Assembly (NCBI RefSeq): GCF_000018105.1
Contig: NC_009925.1
Location: forward strand, 1,170,001 to 1,202,000
DNA: 32,000 nt
DNA from: Acaryochloris marina MBIC11017
GTDB taxonomy: Bacteria > Cyanobacteriota > Cyanobacteriia > Thermosynechococcales > Thermosynechococcaceae
Reading direction: 5' to 3'
Below, piece by piece: positions 10,324 through 26,699 of the stretch. The notes beneath the pieces were generated by a model that did not search any database, was not told where the DNA came from, and was given only the letters and a program-made list of their open reading frames with translations. The translations under genes and the position numbers were made by a program. The first letter of the stretch is position 1. Each line of letters starts with the position of its first letter.

Positions 10324-10605
10324 TTAATGAACGGCCAGGTTAGAGTTCATTTGAACAAAAACCAAAGCCAATAAGATTGCGAGCGCTACCAGCAACAGTG
10401 CTCTTCTTTCTTGGACAGACAGTTTCCCACAAGGTCCATCAGGTGGTGGAGTGACAGGAGTCGTTCTGCGGCCCCCAGTTCGCGGAGGAACTGGGCGCAC
10501 AAACGGCTGCACTTCACGAGTGAGCCGATTGGCAGATGACACCGATGGAGTCCTCCCCCGATGGGGTGGCCGGATTCTAGAGGGACGACGGGCTGGACGA
10601 CTCAT
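10324..10605 (-). CDS. Small Arg/Pro-rich protein with a C-terminal TM helix (tail-anchored), coupled to the haloperoxidase gene
   Basis: 93 codons. Its ATG overlaps the haloperoxidase TGA in ATGA (10602-10605). The N-terminal ~66 residues hold about 15 Arg and 14 Pro, followed by ALLLVALAILLALVFV. It could be a chance ORF in a GC-rich patch. Confidence 0.45.
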   Translation of the reverse strand: MSRPARRPSRIRPPHRGRTPSVSSANRLTREVQPFVRPVPPRTGGRRTTPVTPPPDGPCGKLSVQERRALLLVALAILLALVFVQMNSNLAVH

Positions 10606-12482
10606 CGGCGACCAATCCTTCTAACGTCGCCATCAAAGGTAGGAACAGATAAGACGAAGGGATCGGTTGAATAGGTTAATGCCTGTTCTTCTAGAATTCC
10701 AATTGCAATTTCTTCACCCATTCGTAAACTGTCGTAGTAGTCAGTGAAATAATGAACCCCTGCCATATCCCGGCCAATGGAGATATTGGCTGCAAGTTTG
10801 TTCAGCTCACCTTCTAGAGTTAGGAAGTGGTTTGGCTTAAATGGCTTTAAATCGTCCTTAGGAACACCTTCTCCTGGTCCAGATCCAGGTAGATCAGGCG
10901 CGCGAAAAGCAATAGGTTTATCACCATTTTCCAAACGTTTAAACGCAATACTTTGACCTGATTTTGCCAGTACTGCACTAGTGTCAAAGAATGCCTTGAG
11001 AATAGTCACACATGCCCCTGCCACAGTAGCATGACCCGCTCCATATGCCGGATGCATTGGCGAGCCTTCAGGGAAAGCCATTGGTAGTAAATAATTCCCC
11101 CCTAATGCATTCAGTGTTGGCTTTAATGCATTTGAGAATAAACCAATATACTTCTTCAGAACTTCTGGAACAGTGTCTTTGTCAGCCTGTGAAAGGCCGT
11201 CAAAGCTATTAACCAGCTCAATTCTTGCTGCCAGTGCTTCTGGGCGTAAGCGAATATGATTGTTGAATTTCTGAAAACGTACTGCTTTAAGGGCTCGTGT
11301 GGCTACTTCTGTCACCAATGTGAGAATATGCGGACCACCGTAAAGAGCAAATCCCCCAGCATTCCGACGAGACTCAAAACTACTTGCAGCAGCACCAACT
11401 CCGGAAAGGTGGTCAAAACCGGGATCAAAAGGTGTTCCCATCTCTAACAGGATAATGCAGGCGTTCAAATAAGCTTCGTACAAGGCATCGTAATGAACGT
11501 AAGTTGAAAGGTCTCTGGGGGTCGATATAAAACGACGGGGTGGACGATTGGGTTGAGCAACAGAGCCCCCATTCGTGGAACCATAGGTTTCTCTTGGTGG
11601 ACGAATACCTCGCTGTACCTCAACATATTCAGACATAGACCTCATATAGTCCTTACCTGGTTCTGCAATAGGTACCCTTTGATTGATTTGTAGAGCTCCA
11701 TAGGTAATTAGCCCATCTTCTACTTTGCCACCACCTATACCATCAGCATCTCGATTGAGATCCGTATTACCTATCAGTAGGAACTGGGACAAGTAGGGAC
11801 CAGCTTCTACCCCTGGAGACGAACCTCGAAATACCGTTTGGGCATCCAGTTGCCCCGAAGTATTAACCTTACGGGGGCGGCCTGTTTGATTTGAAATATA
11901 ACTGAGGGCATTAAGACGATCTATTGATTGAGTGATAGCAGCATTAGACCTTCCATTCTCAAAATCATTGAAAGGTTGATCCCGAAGTATCGCCAATTCA
12001 TACACTTCTGCCATTTCCAAAACTAGTTCTGGATTAGGGTTCCCGTTCCCATCAAGTAAAGGCGGGGCTGGAGGCATGGTTACAGCCTGGGCATCAGGTC
12101 CTTCCAAGTCAAAGACAACTCCAGCAGTGGGAGCTTCCCATTGTCGGAAATTATTGGGGGGATCACCATCAACTTCTCTGTCAACTCGTTTAACTTCCCC
12201 ACCTTCAACTTTATATAAGGCACCATGGCGTATTAGATCAGAAGAAAATGGATCGATAAAGCCATCATCTATTGCACGACGGAACTCGACGAAATCTTTT
12301 GGATCACCTAGTAATCCAGTTTCCTCATTGTGTGGAAGTCCTTTTGTAAAGGACATGAAATATTTAGCACCAGCATATCGTTCTTCATCGCCGTTGGCCT
12401 GATGGTCAGGATGATTTCGACTTCTAGCTAGCTCTGCGGCTTCAACTCGAACTGCATAGGAATCTTGTCGACGATCTGTCAT
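10602..12482 (-). CDS. Vanadium-dependent haloperoxidase (bromoperoxidase-like, PAP2 superfamily)
   Basis: 626 aa carrying the three vanadate-site motifs: K....N..R.RPE (RFQKFNNHIRLRPEA), PMHPAYGAGHATVAGA (equivalent to P.YPSGHA) and GRDMAGVHYFTD (R...G.H). Confidence 0.85.
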   Translation of the reverse strand: MTDRRQDSYAVRVEAAELARSRNHPDHQANGDEERYAGAKYFMSFTKGLPHNEETGLLGDPKDFVEFRRAIDDGFIDPFSSDLIRHGALYKVEGGEVKRVDREVDGDPPNNFRQWEAPTAGVVFDLEGPDAQAVTMPPAPPLLDGNGNPNPELVLEMAEVYELAILRDQPFNDFENGRSNAAITQSIDRLNALSYISNQTGRPRKVNTSGQLDAQTVFRGSSPGVEAGPYLSQFLLIGNTDLNRDADGIGGGKVEDGLITYGALQINQRVPIAEPGKDYMRSMSEYVEVQRGIRPPRETYGSTNGGSVAQPNRPPRRFISTPRDLSTYVHYDALYEAYLNACIILLEMGTPFDPGFDHLSGVGAAASSFESRRNAGGFALYGGPHILTLVTEVATRALKAVRFQKFNNHIRLRPEALAARIELVNSFDGLSQADKDTVPEVLKKYIGLFSNALKPTLNALGGNYLLPMAFPEGSPMHPAYGAGHATVAGACVTILKAFFDTSAVLAKSGQSIAFKRLENGDKPIAFRAPDLPGSGPGEGVPKDDLKPFKPNHFLTLEGELNKLAANISIGRDMAGVHYFTDYYDSLRMGEEIAIGILEEQALTYSTDPFVLSVPTFDGDVRRIGRR

Positions 12483-13030
12483 AGAAATCTTCCTTTAGTG
12501 TGTGTAGAGTAGTCAGTTATGTACTTCTGGATAAGCTGTCAGGGACAACCAAAAAAATTATGCGATATTCGTAAAACATCACATTTGAGAAAGTGGTTTT
12601 AGGGTTTGCCCTTACTGATAAGCACTAGAGAATAAATATCATTGGCTAACCCTATTGATGTGATATTCAGCTATTCGGTAGCTCTTAGACCTAACTGCTT
12701 TATCGAAGAATTAAGAGAGATAGAAGCATCGCCGAATTGTGGGTTCTCTACAGTGTTGAGATTATCTTCACAATAGCGGGTGAGATAGTGTTGTTCTTAT
12801 TGTTAAGTTCCAATTTCTATCATGTCTGTGAAAAAATGTTTAACACTTGATTATGGTTAGATAAATACCAAAAACTTATGCCTTTGGTGTATTTATTGTA
12901 TGACCGTTTATTCCTTGATTTGTTTCTGCATCGTTAAACAAAAATAAGCACTGAAGGTGTTGGCAAAAAATTGCTTGCATAATGATAGCTAGGCAGATTA
13001 CGGCCTGAGCTATATTCTGGGAGTGAATTT

Positions 13031-13261
13031 GTGCCGATCGAAATAGGTCCCCTTGTTGGAGCAATTGCAAAGGTTGCAGCGCCCATAGCAGTCAACAAGC
13101 TGCAACGCACTGAGGCAGTGATTAAGCTGCTCAAGCAATTCAACCTAGATCCTGAACACCCTCCTGAAGAATTTAGTAGTGTGTATGCCTACGCTCTGGT
13201 GGAATATGGTGTGGGCAAACCTAAGCCGATGTTGGAGCTATTGCGTCAAGATATACTCTAG
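13031..13261 (+). pseudogene. 5' piece (76 codons) of the NACHT-WD40 locus, cut off by the IS element
   Basis: GTG start with GGGAG 8 nt upstream. The frame is open for 76 codons and stops at TAG 13259-13261, within the first few nt of the IS. Removing the IS plus one TA joins it in frame to the 14442 ORF (see findings). Alternatively it is an independent small upstream gene. Confidence 0.6.
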
Positions 13262-14395
13262 GCGGCTAAGATATTAACTTTCTTAAAAGACTGAAACTTG
13301 AGTGATAGTAAGGTGGTGAGTTTCGCCTTATGCTCTCCATTACACTGGTCGATGCACTGTTGAATGGCCCCTTTGAAGGCGGGAAAATCAGCATAATACT
13401 TTGAATAGAGACATTCCTTGCGTACAAAACGCCAGAGTCGCTCAATCAAATTCAAATGGCGTGAATAGGAGGGCAGATAGACCAGCTCAATATCGACGAT
13501 CTCGGCAAAGTCCGTTACAAGCTGACATTTCTGGTATCGCGCATTGTCTAAAATCACGCTGATGGGTATGACTGGGTCAAGTAGCGCCAGCTTGGCCAGT
13601 AACAGGCACATACTGTGAGAATTGATATAGGTGTGGTTGGTAACGCTGACTAGGTCTTTGGTGATAGCGTCGAGCGCGCCCAGGACATTGAAACGTTGGC
13701 GACCAGAAGGAGAAGGGATGAAGATCCGAGTGATGCACCAGACAAACCCTAGATAAGCACGGTGAACAAAGTGAGCAGCATCCACAAAAAAGACAAGACG
13801 CTCTTGGCGTTGAGCTTCCTCTAATAAGGGTTCAAGGCGAGTGTGTCGAAACTGCTCTTGCTCCTCAATTTTCTCGGGCAGACTCGACTTTCCCGGCACA
13901 TACCCCACTTTTCGATAACGACAACCGATGCGTTTGAGGAAGGCTTTGATTTGGGTGGGACTGCGTTTGATGCCTGTTAATTGCTCAATGACCGCTTGAG
14001 CTTCTGCACTGGTGCGGGGAGGATGTTGCTCAAAGTAAGCTCTCACACTATCGCTATGAGCGTTGAGTAGACTCGGTTGACCTTTATATTCAAGGGTCTT
14101 CAGCCCTTCAATCCCTCCTTGTTGATACTGACGAAGAGTTTTGGCTAAAGTGGGGCGACTAATCTGACAAAGCTGGCAGATCTGGGTATGGGAAAGACCT
14201 TGACTCTTCAAGTAGAGCACTTCCATCCGTCGCTGCACCCGTGGGTGAGGGTGATGATAGCGTTCGTAATTGAGTTGTTGGATTTCCTCTGCGGTGAAAT
14301 CAATTTTAATCATGGGAGTGGAGGATAGGTGCGGGGATACTCCCAGTGTGCCAAATCTCTCTACCACAATGTTAAGTCACAAGTCGTCCGCAGTA
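13256..14395 (-). mobile_element. IS630 / Tc1-mariner family insertion sequence (~1.13 kb), boundaries +/-5 bp
   Basis: It has a single transposase ORF with a DD35E triad, flanking TA dinucleotides (13254-55 or 13259-60, and 14394-95), and imperfect terminal inverted repeats (CTCTAGGCGGCT...TTAAC versus the reverse complement CTGCGGACGACT...TTAAC, 15 of 27 positions ungapped). Confidence 0.8.
13258..14313 (-). CDS. IS630-family DDE transposase (351 aa)
   Basis: The N-terminal half has HTH motifs (LSHTQICQLCQISRPTLAKTL). The catalytic residues are D in FFVDAAHF, D in ILDNARYQK, and E exactly 35 residues later in LPSYSRHLNLIERLW. I prefer the start at ATG 14313 (MIKIDFTAEE) over the track start at 14367. 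Confidence 0.9.
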   Translation of the reverse strand: MIKIDFTAEEIQQLNYERYHHPHPRVQRRMEVLYLKSQGLSHTQICQLCQISRPTLAKTLRQYQQGGIEGLKTLEYKGQPSLLNAHSDSVRAYFEQHPPRTSAEAQAVIEQLTGIKRSPTQIKAFLKRIGCRYRKVGYVPGKSSLPEKIEEQEQFRHTRLEPLLEEAQRQERLVFFVDAAHFVHRAYLGFVWCITRIFIPSPSGRQRFNVLGALDAITKDLVSVTNHTYINSHSMCLLLAKLALLDPVIPISVILDNARYQKCQLVTDFAEIVDIELVYLPSYSRHLNLIERLWRFVRKECLYSKYYADFPAFKGAIQQCIDQCNGEHKAKLTTLLSLKFQSFKKVNILAA

Positions 14396-14441
14396 TAAAA
14401 TTCGCCAAAGTTTTCGGAAGTCTTTTGAGAACAAAGATCCT

Positions 14442-17400
14442 TTGATCTTGCTGGCTGAAGGAGAAAAAAATATTCAAGTCCATGAATTAGAGAGTGACTT
14501 TGAATCAGAGGGAATTGATTACCAACTTGAATTTGCCAATTTCACTACAATTTTTTTGAAGGTGGCAAATCAGACTAGAACGCCTGCAGATGTCAGACGA
14601 GATCAGAATATTTCCAGTCTTCGAGATGGCTTAGATCGGGTGCAAGAAAGACTTAATCGGCTACCTACTGTGGAAGCGATGCGGGCAGAGATGGCTCGCT
14701 TGGTTTCTCAAGATGGACTTATGCTGCCGGGCAGTGACTCATCCCCCCAAGAGAGTTGTCGAGCCTATGGGTTGGCTCAGCAAATGCGGGGGTGGTTTGA
14801 GACGCTGGACTATGAGTTTGAGTCTTATGAGGCTTGGGAAACAGACTATTTTGAGTGGATTATTACCTATCGAGTGAGTCGGCGGCGATTTAATCGGGTG
14901 CTGGTGAGGGGGGTAGATGGCGAAGGGGGGGTTGCAGATATTAAGGCTTTAGCACAGTCGGTTGAAAGCCAACGTGCCGATGAAGGGTGGCTGGTCAGTA
15001 GTCGTCGCATGAGCGAGGCAGCCAGGGAAGAGGTGGCGCAAACTGAGAATGAGCATTTGGAGTGCTACACCTTTGATGAATTGCTGGATCAGGATGCGGA
15101 TTTTAGTGGCTATTTGACTTGGTTGGAGTCGGAGATTCAGCGTCGGCAGATTGATGAGCAATATGTGCCCCTGGCCTGTACAAAGGAGGAATTTAGTCCT
15201 CAAACCCAACAACGAATTGCGTTAAGTCGATATGGCGAAGCGAATGGTTGGATTGATGGCTATGTGGATGTGTGGCTGGATGACCCTGCCAAGGAACATA
15301 TTTCTGTATTGGGAGAGTTTGGGACGGGAAAGACTTGGTTTACACTGCACTATGCCTGGAAGGCTTTACAAGACTATCGCGAAGCACAGCAACGAGGAAC
15401 TGAGCGACCGCGATTACCTTTAGTGATTCCGCTGCGAGATTATGCCAAAGCGGTAAGCGTGGAGTCACTGTTTTCAGAGTTTTTCTTTCGCAAGCATGAG
15501 ATTCCGATTCCGGGCTATTCGGCTTTTGAGCAGTTGAATCGAATGGGGAAGCTGTTGCTGATCTTTGATGGCTTTGATGAGATGGCAGCGCGGGTCGATC
15601 GGCAACAGATGATCAATAACTTTTGGGAACTGGCCAAGGTAGTAGTGCCAGGGTCTAAGGCTATTCTGACCTGTCGGACAGAACATTTCCCGGAAGCCAA
15701 GGAAGGGCGGTATTTATTGGGTGCTGAGTTAAAGGCTTCAACCGCTGCCTTGACAGGGGAACCGCCTCAGTTTGAAGTGCTGGAGCTGGAAAAGTTTGAT
15801 GAGAAGCAAATTCAGCAAGTGCTGTCCTTTCGGGCAGATGAGAAATCCGTGCAGCAAATTATGGGCTATCCCCAGCTTATGGATTTGGCTCGTCGCCCAG
15901 TGATGACGGAACTGATTTTGGATGCACTGCCGGAAATTACTGCGGGTAAGCCGATTGATTTAGCGCGGGTGTATCTGTATGCCGTGCGGCGGAAGATGGA
16001 GCAGGATATTAAGGCAGAACGGACCTTTACCTCCTTGGCAGACAAGCTTTATTTTCTGTGTGAGCTGTCTTGGGAAATGATTTTGTCGGATCAGATGCGG
16101 CTAAACTACAAGCTTTTCCCAGAGCGGATTCGGAAGCTGTTTGGTCCGGTGGTGCAGGAGCAAACGGATCTGGATCATTGGCACTACGACATGATGGGGC
16201 AGTCGATGCTAATTCGGGATGCGGAGGGAAATTATAGCCCTGCCCATCGGTCACTGCTAGAGTTTTTTGTGGCCTATAAGCTGGTGGCTTTGTTGGGGGT
16301 TTTGGCTCCTGATTTTCTGGAGGTGGCAAGGGAGCAAACCCATATCGATCAAGCGTTGCCTGGGCAGGAATATGGCTGGTGGGATTATTGCCAGCGGCAA
16401 GTGGATAAGCAGGGTGCCATCCAAAAGATTGCTCCTCTACTTCGGTTTAGGTCAGGAGATCGGGAGAGTCTCCAGCCGCTACTGGTGCCTGCCCCACTGG
16501 CTAAGGCAATTTTGGATTTGGCCGTTCCGATGCTCGATTCGGCCCTAATGGTGGAACGGTTACTTCCTCAAATTCAAGCAACTCGGGGACAAACTCAGGA
16601 ACAGGCAGGGTATTGGGGTGGGAACCTAACGCAGCTTCTGGTTGATAAAAATCCTTGGGCTTTGGAAACCCATGATTTGAGTGATACCCATTTGCAAGGG
16701 GTTAATTTTGCCAATGTCAGCTTACTACAGGTGAATTTGGCCAGAGCTAGCTTGGCAGAAGCCCGTTTCAATAAAGTTCTAGCGGTCATTTATACCATTG
16801 CTGTTAGTCCCGATGGCCAGCGTTGGGCCATTGGGGAGGATAACGGCAGACTGCAGATGTGGGACGCCAGTACCGGGCGCGTGTTATGGATCCGACAAGA
16901 ACATTCTGGTGCTATTCGGTCGGTGGCCTTTAGCCCCGATGGCCAGCGGATTGTCAGTGGCAGTTATGACAACACCCTCCGACTCTGGGATGCACAGGGC
17001 AACCCCATCGGCCAACCCTGGACAGGCCATACGAATTATGTCTTGTCGGTGGCCTTTAGCCCCGATGGCCAGCGGATTGTCAGTGGCAGTTATGACAACA
17101 CCCTCCGACTCTGGGATGCACAGGGCAACCCCATCGGCCAACCCTGGACAGGCCATACGAATTATGTCTGGTCGGTGGCCTTTAGCCCCGATGGCCAGCG
17201 GATTGTCAGTGGCAGTTATGACAACACCCTCCGACTCTGGGATGCACAGGGCAACCCCATCGGCCAACCCTGGACAGGCCATACGAATTATGTCTTGTCG
17301 GTGGCCTTTAGCCCCGATGGCCAGCGGATTGTCAGTGGCAGTTATGACAACACCCTCCGACTCTGGGATGCACAGGGCAACCTCATCGGCCAACCCTGGA

Positions 17401-18005
17401 CAGGCCATACGAATTATGTCAGGTCGGTGGCCTTTAGCCCCGATGGCCAGCGGATTGTCAGTGGCAGTTATGACAACACCCTCCGACTCTGGGATGCACA
17501 GGGCAACCCCATCGGCCAACCCTGGACAGGCCATACGAATTATGTCTGGTCGGTGGCCTTTAGCCCCGATGGCCAGCGGATTGTCAGTGGCAGTGATGAC
17601 AAAACCCTCCGACTCTGGGATGCACAGGGCAACCCCATCGGCCAACCCTGGACAGGCCATACGAATTATGTCTGGTCGGTGGCCTTTAGCCCCGATGGCC
17701 AGCGGATTGTCAGTGGCAGTTCTGACAACACCCTCCGACTCTGGGATGCACAGGGGAACCCCATTGGCCAACCCTGGACAGGCCATACGAATTCTGTCAG
17801 GTCGGTGGCCTTTAGCCCCGATGGCCAGCGGATTGTCAGTGGCAGTGATGACAAAACCCTCCGACTCTGGGAGGTCGATACGGGTAAATGTTTAGCGGTC
17901 GTTCAAACGGGTTTATGTGGTGGCCTGGACTTTAGTGGTGCCCTGGGTTTAACAGCAGCCCAAGAGATGGCCTTGAAAGCAATGGGTGCCTACTGTAACG
18001 ATTAG
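14442..18005 (+). CDS. NLR-like STAND protein: Mrr-like endonuclease fold + NACHT NTPase + pentapeptide linker + 9 WD40 blades (3' part of the IS-interrupted locus)
   Basis: Walker A is GEFGTGKT (15312-15335) and Walker B is LLLIFDGFDEM (15552-15584), followed by ILTCRTEHF, typical of NACHT. Upstream, RVLVRGVDGEGGV...RADEGWLVSSRRMSEAAREE resembles the Mrr_cat fold. Pentapeptide units lie at 16670-16777 and WD40 units (SVAFSPDGQRIVSGS.D.TLRLWD) at 16783-17880. The track start is a TTG. There is no ATG for about 80 codons, and the frame is open back to 14376, inside the IS. Confidence 0.9.
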   Translation: MILLAEGEKNIQVHELESDFESEGIDYQLEFANFTTIFLKVANQTRTPADVRRDQNISSLRDGLDRVQERLNRLPTVEAMRAEMARLVSQDGLMLPGSDSSPQESCRAYGLAQQMRGWFETLDYEFESYEAWETDYFEWIITYRVSRRRFNRVLVRGVDGEGGVADIKALAQSVESQRADEGWLVSSRRMSEAAREEVAQTENEHLECYTFDELLDQDADFSGYLTWLESEIQRRQIDEQYVPLACTKEEFSPQTQQRIALSRYGEANGWIDGYVDVWLDDPAKEHISVLGEFGTGKTWFTLHYAWKALQDYREAQQRGTERPRLPLVIPLRDYAKAVSVESLFSEFFFRKHEIPIPGYSAFEQLNRMGKLLLIFDGFDEMAARVDRQQMINNFWELAKVVVPGSKAILTCRTEHFPEAKEGRYLLGAELKASTAALTGEPPQFEVLELEKFDEKQIQQVLSFRADEKSVQQIMGYPQLMDLARRPVMTELILDALPEITAGKPIDLARVYLYAVRRKMEQDIKAERTFTSLADKLYFLCELSWEMILSDQMRLNYKLFPERIRKLFGPVVQEQTDLDHWHYDMMGQSMLIRDAEGNYSPAHRSLLEFFVAYKLVALLGVLAPDFLEVAREQTHIDQALPGQEYGWWDYCQRQVDKQGAIQKIAPLLRFRSGDRESLQPLLVPAPLAKAILDLAVPMLDSALMVERLLPQIQATRGQTQEQAGYWGGNLTQLLVDKNPWALETHDLSDTHLQGVNFANVSLLQVNLARASLAEARFNKVLAVIYTIAVSPDGQRWAIGEDNGRLQMWDASTGRVLWIRQEHSGAIRSVAFSPDGQRIVSGSYDNTLRLWDAQGNPIGQPWTGHTNYVLSVAFSPDGQRIVSGSYDNTLRLWDAQGNPIGQPWTGHTNYVWSVAFSPDGQRIVSGSYDNTLRLWDAQGNPIGQPWTGHTNYVLSVAFSPDGQRIVSGSYDNTLRLWDAQGNLIGQPWTGHTNYVRSVAFSPDGQRIVSGSYDNTLRLWDAQGNPIGQPWTGHTNYVWSVAFSPDGQRIVSGSDDKTLRLWDAQGNPIGQPWTGHTNYVWSVAFSPDGQRIVSGSSDNTLRLWDAQGNPIGQPWTGHTNSVRSVAFSPDGQRIVSGSDDKTLRLWEVDTGKCLAVVQTGLCGGLDFSGALGLTAAQEMALKAMGAYCND
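16921..17872 (+). repeat. Tandem array of ~7.5 near-identical 126-bp units (one WD40 blade each)
   Basis: Units start at 16921, 17047, 17173, 17299, 17425, 17551, 17677 and 17803. Units 1 and 3 are identical over 126/126 nt, as are units 2 and 5. The others differ by 1-8 nt. Confidence 0.97.
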
Positions 18006-18063
18006 GAGTCTCTGCACCTTTGCCAATGCATATACTTCAGCTAGCAAGTCATTCTACTTGCCC

Positions 18064-18984
18064 CTAGCTCTCCACAATCTCAACGGCGGAAGTCAGTTCC
18101 TTTAATTCATCTGCCGACAAATCAGACACGATCGCATAGTGAAACTCACCATCACTCCAAAACACTCCACCCGGTCCATCTTGGATTGCCAGATAGAGCT
18201 TCTCTGGCGTGAATTGAGGCAGTTCTGGCCGTTGAGAACGAGCAATTTGGTAAAAAGAGACCTTGCCATGGTGCTCCGTATCGTACATGATCCGGACTCC
18301 CTTGGCCTTACCAAACGTGCAAACACTGCCCCCCAATAACTTAGAACTCATCTGGGAAAGAATGGGCATCGCTGAGGGCATCGGGGCCTGCGCCCTGAGT
18401 AAGGCAGCTAGCTCCATCGGCTGATTACTGGGGATGTCCACCGCTTTCGGCCCTTTTTTGAGCGACTTGTGATGATCCACCAGAATCTGTTCTACCCCTT
18501 GCCAGTTCCGGTTAACAAACGTGTCCGTCGTGGTAATCACCACATTCCTGGGCGTAGTCTGGGGCATCGTCGAGGGCAGTGTAGCCATCAGACTTTTTTG
18601 TTCAGCCAATTCCTGGCGAACTTGAGCCAATTGTTGCTGGAAGTGGACCGTTTGCAACCCTAGAGCCACCGTTGTAACGACTGCAATACCACCAAAGATT
18701 TTGGCCCAAGGGCGTTGTGAATTTGGACTCGCTTTGAAAGGCTCAGCGGATTGGGTCTGAGCCGTCTGCATCATCCGTTCCCGAGCGGAGGGTTGAGGTT
18801 GGGATTCGGCCAGGGCAAAGGGCAATAAATCCAGAGTCTCTTGCAGCCCTGCCACTTCATCCCATAGAGAAGGGTGTTCTACCGCTAACTGCTGAAACTC
18901 AGCCATCTCTTCAGAGTCGAGGTTGCCCAGCACATAGCCCGCCGCAAGTTCTTCAAATCGGTGATGGGGGGTTGGATCGACCAT
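18064..18984 (-). CDS. Membrane-spanning anti-sigma factor (RskA-like N-terminus)
   Basis: The N-terminus FEELAAGYVLGNLDSEEMAEFQQL is typical of anti-sigma N-terminal domains. It has a single TM segment (IFGGIAVVTTVALGL) and starts 4 nt after the ECF sigma gene stop. Confidence 0.7.
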   Translation of the reverse strand: MVDPTPHHRFEELAAGYVLGNLDSEEMAEFQQLAVEHPSLWDEVAGLQETLDLLPFALAESQPQPSARERMMQTAQTQSAEPFKASPNSQRPWAKIFGGIAVVTTVALGLQTVHFQQQLAQVRQELAEQKSLMATLPSTMPQTTPRNVVITTTDTFVNRNWQGVEQILVDHHKSLKKGPKAVDIPSNQPMELAALLRAQAPMPSAMPILSQMSSKLLGGSVCTFGKAKGVRIMYDTEHHGKVSFYQIARSQRPELPQFTPEKLYLAIQDGPGGVFWSDGEFHYAIVSDLSADELKELTSAVEIVES

Positions 18985-18988
18985 AAGA

Positions 18989-19603
18989 TTAAAGCTCCAT
19001 TTGCGTTCGTAGCGACTGGCGAAGTTGGATCAATCCTTTCCTTGCCCAGGTTTTGACCGTGCCCAAGGGCTTGTTCAATTGCTCGGCAATTTGAGATTGA
19101 CTATATCCCCCGAAATAACTGAGTTCCAAAACTTGACGATACTCTTCCGGCAGTTCTGTTAAAGCCTGCTGGAGGGCTTGGCGTTTCTCGGACTGACTGG
19201 CATGGTCCAAGGGCGTCGGAGAAGGATTAGGGGACAAACTTTGCTGCCACTGGGACAAAATACGACGCCGATTTCCCTTCATTCGCAGTCGATCGATGGC
19301 CCTGGACCGAGTCACTGTCGCCAAAAAGCTCGATAAGCTGCCCCGACTGGGATTGTAAGTACAGCGTTCCCACACCCCTAGAAAGATCTCTTGCATCAAG
19401 TCTTCCGCTTCAGAGGAATTGCCCAAAATTTTATAAGCCAGGGTATAAACCAAACTGGAATACTGGTCAAACAAATATTCAAGGGCGTCTAACTCCTGTC
19501 GCTTAATCGCTGCAACCAGGTCAGCGATATCAGCATATTGAGAAGAGGGAACGGGGCGGTTCTCCTCTGAGGATGGATTGGGTTGGGGAACTTTCAAAAG
19601 CAT
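18989..19603 (-). CDS. ECF-type sigma-70 family RNA polymerase sigma factor
   Basis: Region 2 is DLMQEIFLGVWER...F.SFLATVTRSRAIDRLR. Region 4 is the HTH LPEEYRQVLELSYFGGYSQSQIAEQLNKPLGTVKTWARKGL. Confidence 0.85.
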   Translation of the reverse strand: MLLKVPQPNPSSEENRPVPSSQYADIADLVAAIKRQELDALEYLFDQYSSLVYTLAYKILGNSSEAEDLMQEIFLGVWERCTYNPSRGSLSSFLATVTRSRAIDRLRMKGNRRRILSQWQQSLSPNPSPTPLDHASQSEKRQALQQALTELPEEYRQVLELSYFGGYSQSQIAEQLNKPLGTVKTWARKGLIQLRQSLRTQMEL

Positions 19604-21872: not shown

Positions 21873-22283
21873 ATGGTCACGGTTGACGAATCCCAACAAA
21901 TTAGTGATTGCTTGCAACAAGTTTTAACCGTCAACGGTGCGCTAGCTGCTGGCATTGGCAATTGGAAAACAGGTCAATGCTTATTTAAAGATGGTCTCAA
22001 TAAGCCTGATTTCCCAACGTCTAAGATTGAAATCGCGGTCACCCATAATTCAGAGGTGATTAGGGCAAAACAGCGCGCTGCAGCGGCGCTAGAGTTTGAT
22101 GACAAAATTGACGATATTTTGATTAGTCTGACTCGCCAGTGGCATATTATGAAGCTGTTGAAAGTGGAAGGCTACTTTCTCTACATCGCTTTAGATCGAT
22201 CCAAAGCCAGTATTGCATCCGCTGGACTCAAGTTAAAACAAGCGAATCGAGAACTATCAAAAATCCTAGTCAACTATCCCTAA
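21873..22283 (+). CDS. Hypothetical protein, possibly Roadblock/LC7 (MglB-like) fold
   Basis: 136 aa. The pattern L..VL.V.GALAAGIG.W.TGQCL ... ILISLTRQWHIMKLL ... FLYIALDRSKASIASAGLKLKQ resembles Roadblock/LC7 domains. This is a weak call made by eye, and there is no adjacent small GTPase. Confidence 0.4.
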   Translation: MVTVDESQQISDCLQQVLTVNGALAAGIGNWKTGQCLFKDGLNKPDFPTSKIEIAVTHNSEVIRAKQRAAAALEFDDKIDDILISLTRQWHIMKLLKVEGYFLYIALDRSKASIASAGLKLKQANRELSKILVNYP

Positions 22284-22426
22284 AGATCGCCGCCCTGTAG
22301 CTTTTCAGATAATGAACCGACGGTTGGGACCCCAATCATCATATCCCTGATCAGTCCCCCGCTAAAGCTGAGCCCCTGGCCCTTTCTCTACGGGGAACTT
22401 CGCCTGTCGCCATGCTTTGATATCCC

Positions 22427-26348: not shown

Positions 26349-26699
26349 ATGATTGACGAATGGAGTCCGTGTCGATATATCGACTACGGTGAAGACCTGG
26401 GAGACCCACGGTACGGTGTTATGTTCGATGATTTCAGCTCTACGAAGGCAACCCTAGAGGCAGCAGGATTCATGGGGGGCGGTTGTACCTGGCACGGTAT
26501 CGTTGAGGCAATGATCCGAACTTCACACTCAAATTTTATTGGTGACATCAGCTACGACCCAGAAGGTTCCATGTTCTGTGCGCGCAGCTCCAATCTTGAA
26601 GCGCTCAAGTGTGTTGCTCAATGCATTCGCAGTGCTGTAACAGACTCAACCGTAATGCAGACCGCATTAGATAATGCAGACAAATCAATAATCGAGTGA
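26349..26699 (+). CDS. Hypothetical small cytoplasmic protein (116 aa)
   Basis: Clean ATG ORF whose GC content is higher than its flanks. No family firmly recognised. The size, acidic composition and context are reminiscent of orphan immunity-type proteins, but I cannot support that assignment. Confidence 0.55.
   Translation: MIDEWSPCRYIDYGEDLGDPRYGVMFDDFSSTKATLEAAGFMGGGCTWHGIVEAMIRTSHSNFIGDISYDPEGSMFCARSSNLEALKCVAQCIRSAVTDSTVMQTALDNADKSIIE

Follow-up and report, generated by a model that had tools for sequence, protein, structure and literature searches.

An IS630-split and probably inactive gene of Acaryochloris marina for a cyanobacterial NLR-like STAND protein with NNH5, NACHT, and WD40 domains

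A gene of Acaryochloris marina MBIC11017, located at positions 13031 to 18005 of a 32,000-nucleotide stretch of contig NC_009925.1 (positions 1,170,001 to 1,202,000 of the forward strand; this whole stretch is called the window), encodes a protein with NNH5, restriction endonuclease (REase)-like, NACHT, pentapeptide, and WD40 domains and is split by an insertion sequence (IS). We consider it probable that this gene is the A. marina orthologue of a widespread cyanobacterial NLR (nucleotide-binding, leucine-rich repeat)-like STAND (signal transduction ATPase with numerous domains) protein of the clade-11 type, that the output of this protein runs via NNH5, and that the gene, being split by the IS, is inactivated. 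Inactivation in this strain is the most likely state because the IS parts the first 74 residues from the rest and because the WD40 array is short (9 units, against the usual 14), and it is most likely recent, since both fragments are otherwise intact. The domain family is already known: both N-terminal domains are in Pfam, and the architecture is listed by Kibby et al. (Cell 2023; 10.1101/2022.07.19.500537) in their Table S1, which includes a fitting A. marina entry. The novelty implied by a first-pass annotation of this DNA, made from the sequence alone, is therefore not supported.

The first-pass annotation had described one reading frame, which is true only after excision of an IS630-family element; in the window, the two parts of the gene lie in different frames. 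The list of open reading frames (ORFs) of the locus contains a 76-codon ORF (13031-13261, plus strand) that terminates at a stop inside the IS, a 369-codon ORF (13258-14367, minus strand), and a 1187-codon ORF (14442-18005, plus strand), and the downstream plus-strand frame is open from 14376. The GTG at 13031, which had been proposed as the start behind a GGGAG, is indeed the start, as the N terminus MPIEIG... is shared with two IS-free orthologues (P0002 and P0004). The minus-strand ORF, in which an ATG is found at about 14313, encodes a transposase of the IS630 DDE type (NCBIfam transpos_IS630, NF033545; E = 1.7e-58, 198 bits with a cutoff of 100) that also matches Pfam DDE_3 and HTH_23. 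IS630 elements target TA, and indeed, a TA dinucleotide is duplicated around the IS (13252-13253 and 14396-14397). The ends of the element read TACT...AGTA, with matches at about 15 of 25 terminal positions by hand comparison; the sole inverted pair reported by a repeat search of the IS was an internal pair of 13 nucleotides (nt). Within the window, the IS is present in a single copy.

Excision of 13254-14397, that is, of the IS plus one TA, yields GAT-AAA-ATT, which is colinear with AAT-GAA-ATT of an IS-free orthologue. The repaired gene (13031-13253 joined to 14398-18005) encodes 1276 amino acids (aa) and has no internal stop. We also considered excision of 13261-14395, which gives 1279 aa, and discarded it on account of three residues (ILY) that would remain and that occur in no orthologue. 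All residue numbers given here refer to the 1276-aa repaired protein; early Pfam output was based on the 1279-aa version, in which numbers are higher by 3 after residue 76. The Pfam match to NNH5 spans the repaired junction, which supports the reconstruction independently. It is this domain that the IS interrupts, after codon 74, and the 3' part of the gene encodes the second half of NNH5, a linker, the iREase domain, the NACHT domain, a helical region, the pentapeptide linker, the WD40 array, and a C-terminal tail (Table 1).

The identical insertion, at the same site, is present in A. marina AP026075.1, which differs from the window by 10 single-nucleotide polymorphisms (SNPs) over 23.6 kb; there, the identical 5' fragment is annotated with Pfam NNH5. 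Because so few differences separate the two genomes that carry the insertion, the intactness of the downstream frame is a poor guide to function. The annotation pipeline of NCBI (PGAP) places a 1201-aa product downstream of the IS, with an ATT codon at window position 14400, 3 nt after the TA duplication, as its start. This product is labeled "NACHT and WD40 repeat domain-containing protein" and is treated as an ordinary protein, not as a pseudogene, and the 76-aa upstream fragment is annotated as a separate gene. The two annotated products are parts of one IS-split gene, and the 1201-aa "protein" of NCBI corresponds to its 3' part. A scan of 12400-18200 for promoters and terminators was uninformative, with sites no more frequent than in shuffled sequence. 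GC skew was strongly positive over 14001-17000, the non-repeat body of the gene (+0.16 to +0.23), and near zero in most other parts of the window.

Table 1. Features of the split gene and domains of the repaired 1276-aa protein (window positions)
Feature	Position	Strand	Basis
Shine-Dalgarno-like GGGAG	13019..13023	+	7 nt upstream of GTG start; read from sequence
5' NLR gene fragment, codons 1-74 plus 1 nt	13031..13253	+	First half of NNH5; ends at TA target site
IS630-family insertion sequence, 1142 bp	13254..14395	-	Transposase profiles; TA duplication 13252-13253 / 14396-14397
3' NLR gene part, codons 75-1276 plus stop	14398..18005	+	Reconstruction; Pfam matches
NNH5 (NACHT N-terminal helical domain 5), aa 6-137	13046..14585, IS-interrupted	+	Pfam PF22736, E = 8e-47
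NA-iREase1, REase-fold domain without canonical catalytic lysine, aa 200-305	14772..15089	+	Pfam PF22722, E = 4e-43
NACHT NTPase (nucleoside triphosphatase) core, aa 376-550	15300..15824	+	Pfam PF05729, 31.4 bits vs cutoff 26.7
Walker A GEFGTGKT, aa 380-387	15312-15335	+	Motif position
Walker B LLLIFDGFDEM, aa 460-470	15552-15584	+	Motif position
PAHRSLLEFF motif (His691), candidate winged-helix histidine	16239..16268	+	Motif position
Pentapeptide-repeat linker, 34 residues, about 7 units, aa 834-867	16674..16775	+	Pfam PF00805, E = 2.2e-4, 21.1 bits vs cutoff 20.2
WD40 array, nine 42-aa units, aa 870-1247	16782..17915	+	Pfam WD40, E = 7e-109; repeat analysis
C-terminal tail, 29 aa (VVQTGLCGGLDFSGALGLTAAQEMALKAMGAYCND), plus stop codon	17916..18005	+	Translation

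The domain order found with Pfam bears out the NLR-type STAND logic of N-terminal module, NACHT switch, and repeat sensor that the first-pass annotation had put forward, and the profile searches that it had proposed as a check matched NACHT, Pentapeptide, and WD40, with a weak match to Mrr_cat (E = 2e-4). All features that it had placed were recovered with a shift of at most about 15 nt, Walker A and Walker B with none, and the NACHT match lies above the Pfam cutoff; the about seven pentapeptide units correspond to one Pfam match of 34 residues, and the nine WD40 blades to nine 42-aa units. The N terminus is helical, as stated, and is longer than the ~90 aa given: the NNH5 domain of Pfam covers ~135 aa and is cut by the IS. 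The Walker B motif contains DGFDE, which fits the D[GAS]hDE signature of NACHT domains (Kibby et al., 10.1101/2022.07.19.500537). A putative sensor-1 arginine lies in ILTCR and was assigned by position. Furthermore, His691 in PAHRSLLEFF lies at the distance expected for the winged-helix histidine, for which a role has been described with H443 of NLRC4 and the equivalents in bNACHT25 (Kibby et al., 10.1101/2022.07.19.500537); its equivalence to NLRC4 H443 is likewise putative. With Walker A, Walker B, the sensor-1 arginine, and this candidate histidine in place, the NACHT switch looks competent at the level of its motifs.

Kibby et al. (10.1101/2022.07.19.500537) defined the NNH domains, marked some domains as catalytically inactive, and listed REase, pentapeptide, and beta-propeller modules among the architectures of bacterial NACHT proteins. 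Their Table S1 contains an A. marina protein, WP_083776698.1, in clade 11, with the architecture NNH5 + NA-iREase1 + NACHT + Pentapeptide + BetaPropeller (coordinates 1-81, 118-231, 239-629, 759-793, and 812-1158). This entry fits the IS-truncated 1201-aa product, with which we matched it by architecture, by the short NNH5, and by the domain coordinates; the assignment to clade 11 is based on this entry and on the architecture. The link to bNACHT proteins drawn earlier holds: the protein belongs to the bacterial NACHT group, some members of which are phage protective. The clade-11 rows of the same table share a chassis of iREase, NACHT or nSTAND4, pentapeptide, and WD40, with the iREase domain beside the NTPase in most members and the pentapeptide element between NACHT and the propeller in most entries. 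The N-terminal domains vary and include caspase, PNPase, SIR2, TIR, trypsin, VWA, calcineurin-like, HTH, EAD4, NNH5, and NNH6 domains.

Since NNH5 fills the variable N-terminal slot that is held by enzymatic effectors or adaptors in related proteins, it is most likely the output domain, as an effector or an adaptor. The AlphaFold2 model of NNH5 is all alpha with 12 helices (mean predicted local distance difference test [pLDDT] score, 77). A profile search with NNH5 against PDB sequences gave nothing under E = 0.5, and a Foldseek search with the model against PDB folds gave a best E of 1.9 and template modeling (TM) scores of ≤0.25. When 30 NNH5 sequences were compared with Pfam at a permissive threshold, only NNH5 itself and scattered chance matches were found. 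The idea that NNH5 is a pore former gained no structural support, as no match to HeLo, MLKL, or another helical death domain was obtained with Foldseek in the PDB. The first 20 residues form a moderately hydrophobic helix behind an acidic residue (MPIEIGPLVGAIAKVAAPIAV; Kyte-Doolittle mean, 1.68). This helix may recall the N-terminal helices of Bell, HeLo, and MLKL domains, a lead that was supported by no search.

NNH5 is not confined to the architecture described here. A profile search of 1.84 billion representative proteins yielded 516 clusters with NNH5 (E ≤ 0.001), which nearly always lies at the very N terminus, and the iREase domain was also present in only 15 of the 58 NNH5 matches of at least 420 aa. 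A scan of a one-genome-per-species collection confirmed 445 loci. Fusions of NNH5 to NACHT occur both with iREase and without it, and NNH5 is also fused to NB-ARC, AAA_35, AAA_16, protein kinase, and DUF4384 domains; other fusions are with nSTAND5 plus a calcineurin-like phosphoesterase, with DUF4062 plus iREase, with EAD1 and CHAT upstream and a Macro domain downstream, and with the TPR-GreABC-PIN chassis. For this last system, Kaur et al. (2021) described an N-terminal slot that is occupied by EAD10 or by one of 13 effector domains. One representative of 614 aa (P0122) is an apparent natural deletion variant that has neither the iREase domain nor the NTPase; in it, NNH5 is joined to the winged-helix end (…ALAHRSLLEFFVAYKF…), followed by WD40. 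The tail that ends this protein (...TEAEKATLKALGA...) resembles the tail of the window protein (...GLTAAQEMALKAMGA..., 17916-18002), which may serve as a conserved cap behind the final WD40 unit. Another NNH5-bearing relative, of Calothrix brevissima NIES-22 (locus L054), lies on a 208-kb plasmid (plasmid2), which means that the family is not strictly chromosomal.

The second domain had been read in the first-pass annotation as an REase-like segment at 14757-15095 and as an Mrr-like effector. Its position was right to within about 15 nt and its fold was right, whereas the canonical catalytic lysine is missing and the role of effector was not borne out. An AlphaFold2 model of aa 196-335 (pLDDT, 86.6) has an alpha-beta-beta-beta-alpha-beta core, and the Foldseek search against the PDB that had been suggested earlier indeed retrieved REase-fold proteins, namely MspJI, EndoMS, AF1548, AspBHI, Cap4, EcoT38I, and the REase-like N-domain of RPB5. 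These matches were moderate (probability, 0.94 to 1.00; E, 1e-3 to 2e-2; TM, 0.4 to 0.55). Comparison of the iREase domain with PDB sequences gave nothing significant; the fold was recognized by structure only, and with the predicted model, the REase fold is confirmed for this domain. The weak match to Mrr_cat was confined to the post-catalytic half of the domain, and of the nuclease of bNACHT25, only the post-catalytic beta4 segment aligned with the iREase profile. The positions of D48 and of the catalytic lysine were mapped onto the iREase domain by secondary structure and by colinearity with Mrr_cat. At the (D/E)xK position in beta3, a lysine was absent in all 120 homologues aligned. In these, the beta3 strand has the form R241-x-L-V-R245-G246-[IV]-[ED]-G-E, and the Q-x-K position reads R-G-[IV]. 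The aspartate at the PD position, Asp224, is kept in the window copy and is found in 46 of the 120 homologues, with Asn, Ser, or another residue in the other 74, and E209 and E227 show no variation or almost none. The same is true for the arginines R236, R241, R245, R277, R278, and R284, which would suit binding of a nucleic acid or phosphate. The mean column identity of the domain is 80%, and Pfam names PF22722 "NACHT-associated inactive REase." Lacking the canonical catalytic lysine and being found next to the NTPase in most of clade 11, the domain is more likely a structural or nucleic acid- or ligand-binding accessory than an effector.

The WD40 array is built from nearly identical units. 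Tandem Repeats Finder gave a period of 126, with 7.6 copies and 97% matches, and DNA identities were 96 to 99% among units 3 to 8 and 92 to 99% among units 2 to 8. Units 3 to 8 vary at unit codons 4 (L/W/R), 20 (Y/D/S), and 22 (N/K) and, by one change, at codon 33 (P/L); in addition, they differ at two synonymous sites. Similar repeats are present in seven further members of the family, and in these the unit positions that varied most within a protein were again 20 and 4, together with 2 and 1. Unit positions 4 and 20 are taken here to correspond to the top-face residues S91 and D107 of WDR5, and we infer that the variable codons sit on the top, ligand-binding face of the propeller. Fourteen WD40 units are present in 56 of 117 homologues, whereas the window gene has nine, as does the copy in the other A. 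marina assembly. Of the 10 SNPs between the window and AP026075.1 (locus L006), 3 fall in the 1134-bp array (binomial P = 0.01), and these (17170, 17469, and 17477) hit unit positions 4, 20, and 22 (W/L, Y/D, and N/K). The Y/D and N/K changes occur together, as in a conversion tract from a "DDK" unit. Conversion between otherwise identical repeats is visible only at the variable codons; therefore, the SNPs show exchange within the array or an assembly error and not selection, and their use as evidence for selection was rejected because repeat conversion alone can explain them. They reflect either frequent exchange within the array or an assembly or polishing error in the repeats. If exchange is the cause, the array may alter the residues of its binding surface through repeat-to-repeat conversion, even among strains that are nearly the same. 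Two further ORFs in other frames of the array (16798-17895 on the plus strand and 16884-17786 on the minus strand; 365 and 300 aa) have periodic translations; they result from the 126-nt repeat and do not represent separate genes.

A search with the N-terminal 871 aa retrieved more than 1700 proteins at E ≤ 1e-10. All named sources among the 120 homologues listed were cyanobacteria, the best match was the 1201-aa protein of A. marina, and the median length of the listed matches was 1489 aa. The closer relatives from Acaryochloris are 76 to 88% identical, and the other listed matches are 60 to 66% identical over the first 870 aa. Acaryochloris sp. 'Moss Beach' has an intact gene, the product of which (P0004) is 1502 aa long. 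The neighbors of the gene there have the same order as in the window: genes for a TPMT-like methyltransferase, a pentapeptide protein, a DUF4259 protein, and a vanadium-haloperoxidase-like protein, then the NLR gene, followed by a 308-aa gene at a putative anti-sigma position and genes for an extracytoplasmic function (ECF) sigma factor, NDH-2, and DoxX. The first-pass annotation had the gene sitting among accessory DNA. Since the gene order is kept in 'Moss Beach' and the IS lies inside the gene, the locus is not an accessory island. In Mastigocladopsis, Kovacikia, and Lyngbya, the neighbors are unlike those in Acaryochloris and include MazE/PIN pairs, other NACHT genes, CRISPR genes, and a CHAT-TPR protease gene, and a conserved partner gene was found in none of the four other genomes examined. 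The difference in neighbors between cyanobacterial genera argues for a single-gene system.

Some neighbors deserve mention in their own right. The region 18064-19603 (minus strand), convergent to the NLR gene, encodes an ECF sigma factor of 204 aa and a 306-aa ORF at a putative anti-sigma position that has no Pfam match; the position of this pair is kept in Acaryochloris sp. 'Moss Beach' and not in other genera. The 626-aa "haloperoxidase" (10602-12482, minus strand) has no Pfam match at E ≤ 0.001, and its orthologues carry precomputed matches to VCPO_2nd, a family for the second domain of vanadium chloroperoxidase. At about 26349-26699 (plus strand; 21950-22300 in locus L006), roughly 8 kb downstream of the NLR gene, is a gene for a 116-aa protein with a precomputed Pfam match to Imm51, an immunity-protein family of polymorphic toxin systems.

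By analogy with characterized NLR-like proteins, an intact protein of this type might work as follows. The top face of the WD40 propellers would bind a ligand, which is probably a protein; binding would release autoinhibition and allow nucleotide-dependent oligomerization of the NACHT module; oligomerization would cluster the NNH5 domains, and these would then deliver the output, either by direct toxicity or by recruitment of another protein. The REase-fold domain probably would serve as a structural or binding accessory. Several observations weigh against this interpretation of the gene. No experiment on the family, on clade 11, or on the domain combination was found in the literature, in line with the earlier statement that this exact combination has no experimentally defined function, and the tested bNACHT proteins in part 1 of Table S2 of Kibby et al. 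are all enterobacterial or from Vibrio. A PADLOC search, which had been proposed as a check, gave no match of the window protein to an Avs or bNACHT model; the WD40 part matched HEAT-ARM_XIII, there was a weak P-loop match to mad8 (E = 5e-4), and nothing else was hit. The surroundings of the gene in Acaryochloris are conserved, resemble housekeeping DNA, and are not a defense island. NNH5 has no recognizable fold relative, so that its output role would be deduced from its position in the architectures only. The conserved acids E209, E227, [E/D]248, and E250 of the REase-fold domain may leave a non-canonical metal site, e.g., a BamHI-like E-x-E. Finally, the N-terminally truncated 1201-aa protein may have residual expression.

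The latter point leads to the possibility that the split gene still works, with the 1201-aa product, or both fragments together, keeping the ability to sense and signal. The downstream frame of 3.6 kb is free of stops and frameshifts, the split arrangement is common to two genomes, and NCBI annotates a protein and not a pseudogene. However, 10 SNPs in 23.6 kb leave little time for decay between these genomes, which makes the intactness uninformative, and no evidence for ribosome binding was found at the ATT start 3 nt past the TA duplication. Moreover, the presumed output domain would be missing its first 74 residues in this product, which has 9 instead of 14 WD40 units, and loss of repeats makes alleles of het-d and of het-e in Podospora non-reactive. 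A working split gene therefore seems very unlikely. We judge no more favorably the proposal that the Mrr-like PD-(D/E)xK domain is an active nuclease effector that is switched by NACHT and degrades phage or host DNA, as proposed for bNACHT25 of Escherichia coli. The REase fold and the weak Mrr_cat match are in its favor, as are Asp224 in the window copy and the acids kept in the family, and the Mrr-like REase of bNACHT25 loses toxicity with D48A (Kibby et al., 10.1101/2022.07.19.500537). On the other hand, a lysine is found neither in nor beside beta3 in any of the 120 homologues, Asp224 is replaced in the majority of them, Mrr_cat and bNACHT25 align to the post-catalytic half only, and the Pfam curators themselves chose the name "inactive REase." In clade 11, the iREase domain co-occurs with true enzymatic effectors (caspase, SIR2, TIR, PNPase, and trypsin), as would fit an accessory.

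The protein could also be non-immune, i.e., a conserved cyanobacterial signaling or regulatory STAND switch that, for example, senses an endogenous protein and acts via DNA binding by the non-catalytic REase-fold domain. The identity of 60 to 66% over 870 aa across cyanobacterial orders and the 80% mean column identity of iREase would be in line with such a function, as would the near-invariant arginines suited to nucleic acid or phosphate binding, the synteny with ordinary genes within Acaryochloris, and the lack of any defense-model match in PADLOC. Nevertheless, we regard this as unlikely. Near-identical WD40 repeats that vary only at inferred binding-face positions are a hallmark of non-self sensors, sister proteins carry typical conflict effectors in the N-terminal slot, the distribution is patchy, and the neighbors in other genera include toxin-antitoxin pairs, NACHT genes, CRISPR genes, and a CHAT protease. 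Disruption by the IS is also tolerated in two A. marina genomes. We thus favor a clade-11-type NLR-like protein with output via NNH5. A broader proposal, which we find doubtful at present, is that NNH5 is an uncharacterized output domain that executes cell death or acts as a homotypic adaptor and that is common to many unrelated conflict chassis of multicellular cyanobacteria (NACHT, NB-ARC, nSTAND5, AAA_35, protein kinase, and TPR-GreABC-PIN); its hydrophobic N-terminal helix may then act like the helix of HeLo, Bell, MLKL, or coiled-coil NLR proteins. If this were true, the NLR would kill or arrest the cell via NNH5, and the REase-fold domain would have been converted to a non-catalytic partner of the NTPase.

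As a discovery, the gene is of little value: the family is cataloged, and this copy is broken. What remains of interest are NNH5 and iREase as uncharacterized parts of a very common type of cyanobacterial NLR. In filamentous cyanobacteria, the NACHT proteins of clade 11 rank among the most common NLR-like proteins, and an intact orthologue would be a reasonable entry point.

The closest known proteins are those of clade 11, such as WP_096653106.1 of Calothrix parasitica and the A. marina entry WP_083776698.1, which have the same domain order as the window protein. In full-length relatives of this clade, NNH5 is uninterrupted and the WD40 units usually number 14, whereas the window copy is split by the IS and has 9. 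Among the bacterial proteins with experimentally demonstrated anti-phage activity, bNACHT25 of E. coli ECOR11 (REase + nSTAND4/NACHT + NCH1) is comparable in that both are single-gene STAND proteins with an REase-fold domain directly N-terminal to the NTPase and with the same switch logic; for the activating winged-helix histidine of bNACHT25, the window protein has a candidate. However, bNACHT25 belongs to clade 6 and not to clade 11, and its REase domain lies at the extreme N terminus and is catalytic (D48 is required), with a lysine in VICK. The REase-fold domain of the window protein has no such lysine and lies behind NNH5, and a WD40 sensor follows downstream in place of the short helical NCH1. 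The order of effector, STAND NTPase, and repeat sensor is also shared with the bacterial Apaf-1-like and Avs STAND sensors (Nature 2026, PMC13581612). WD40 propeller sensors occur in cyanobacterial STAND proteins, and characterized members are activated by direct binding of phage proteins (PMC13581612). These sensors belong to the AP-ATPase or Avs clades, whereas the window protein belongs to the NACHT clade and matches no Avs model of PADLOC.

For bacterial NLRs, a strong internal conservation of the WD repeats has already been noted in the literature, and the pattern of the array is that of the fungal HET-E-type NLRs. The Podospora anserina proteins HET-E, HET-D, and HET-R (HET + NACHT + WD40; the HNWD proteins) resemble the window protein in that NACHT is followed by 42-aa WD40 repeats of >80% internal identity, in that variation is limited to a few codons at the predicted interaction surface, and in that the number of repeats is unstable. 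The N termini differ, being HET in the fungal proteins and NNH5 + iREase in the window protein, and a pentapeptide linker is not described for the former. We do not claim orthology to the HNWD proteins, which mediate HET-C allorecognition; the likeness lies in the evolution of the sensor, an array of near-identical units with a few variable codons.

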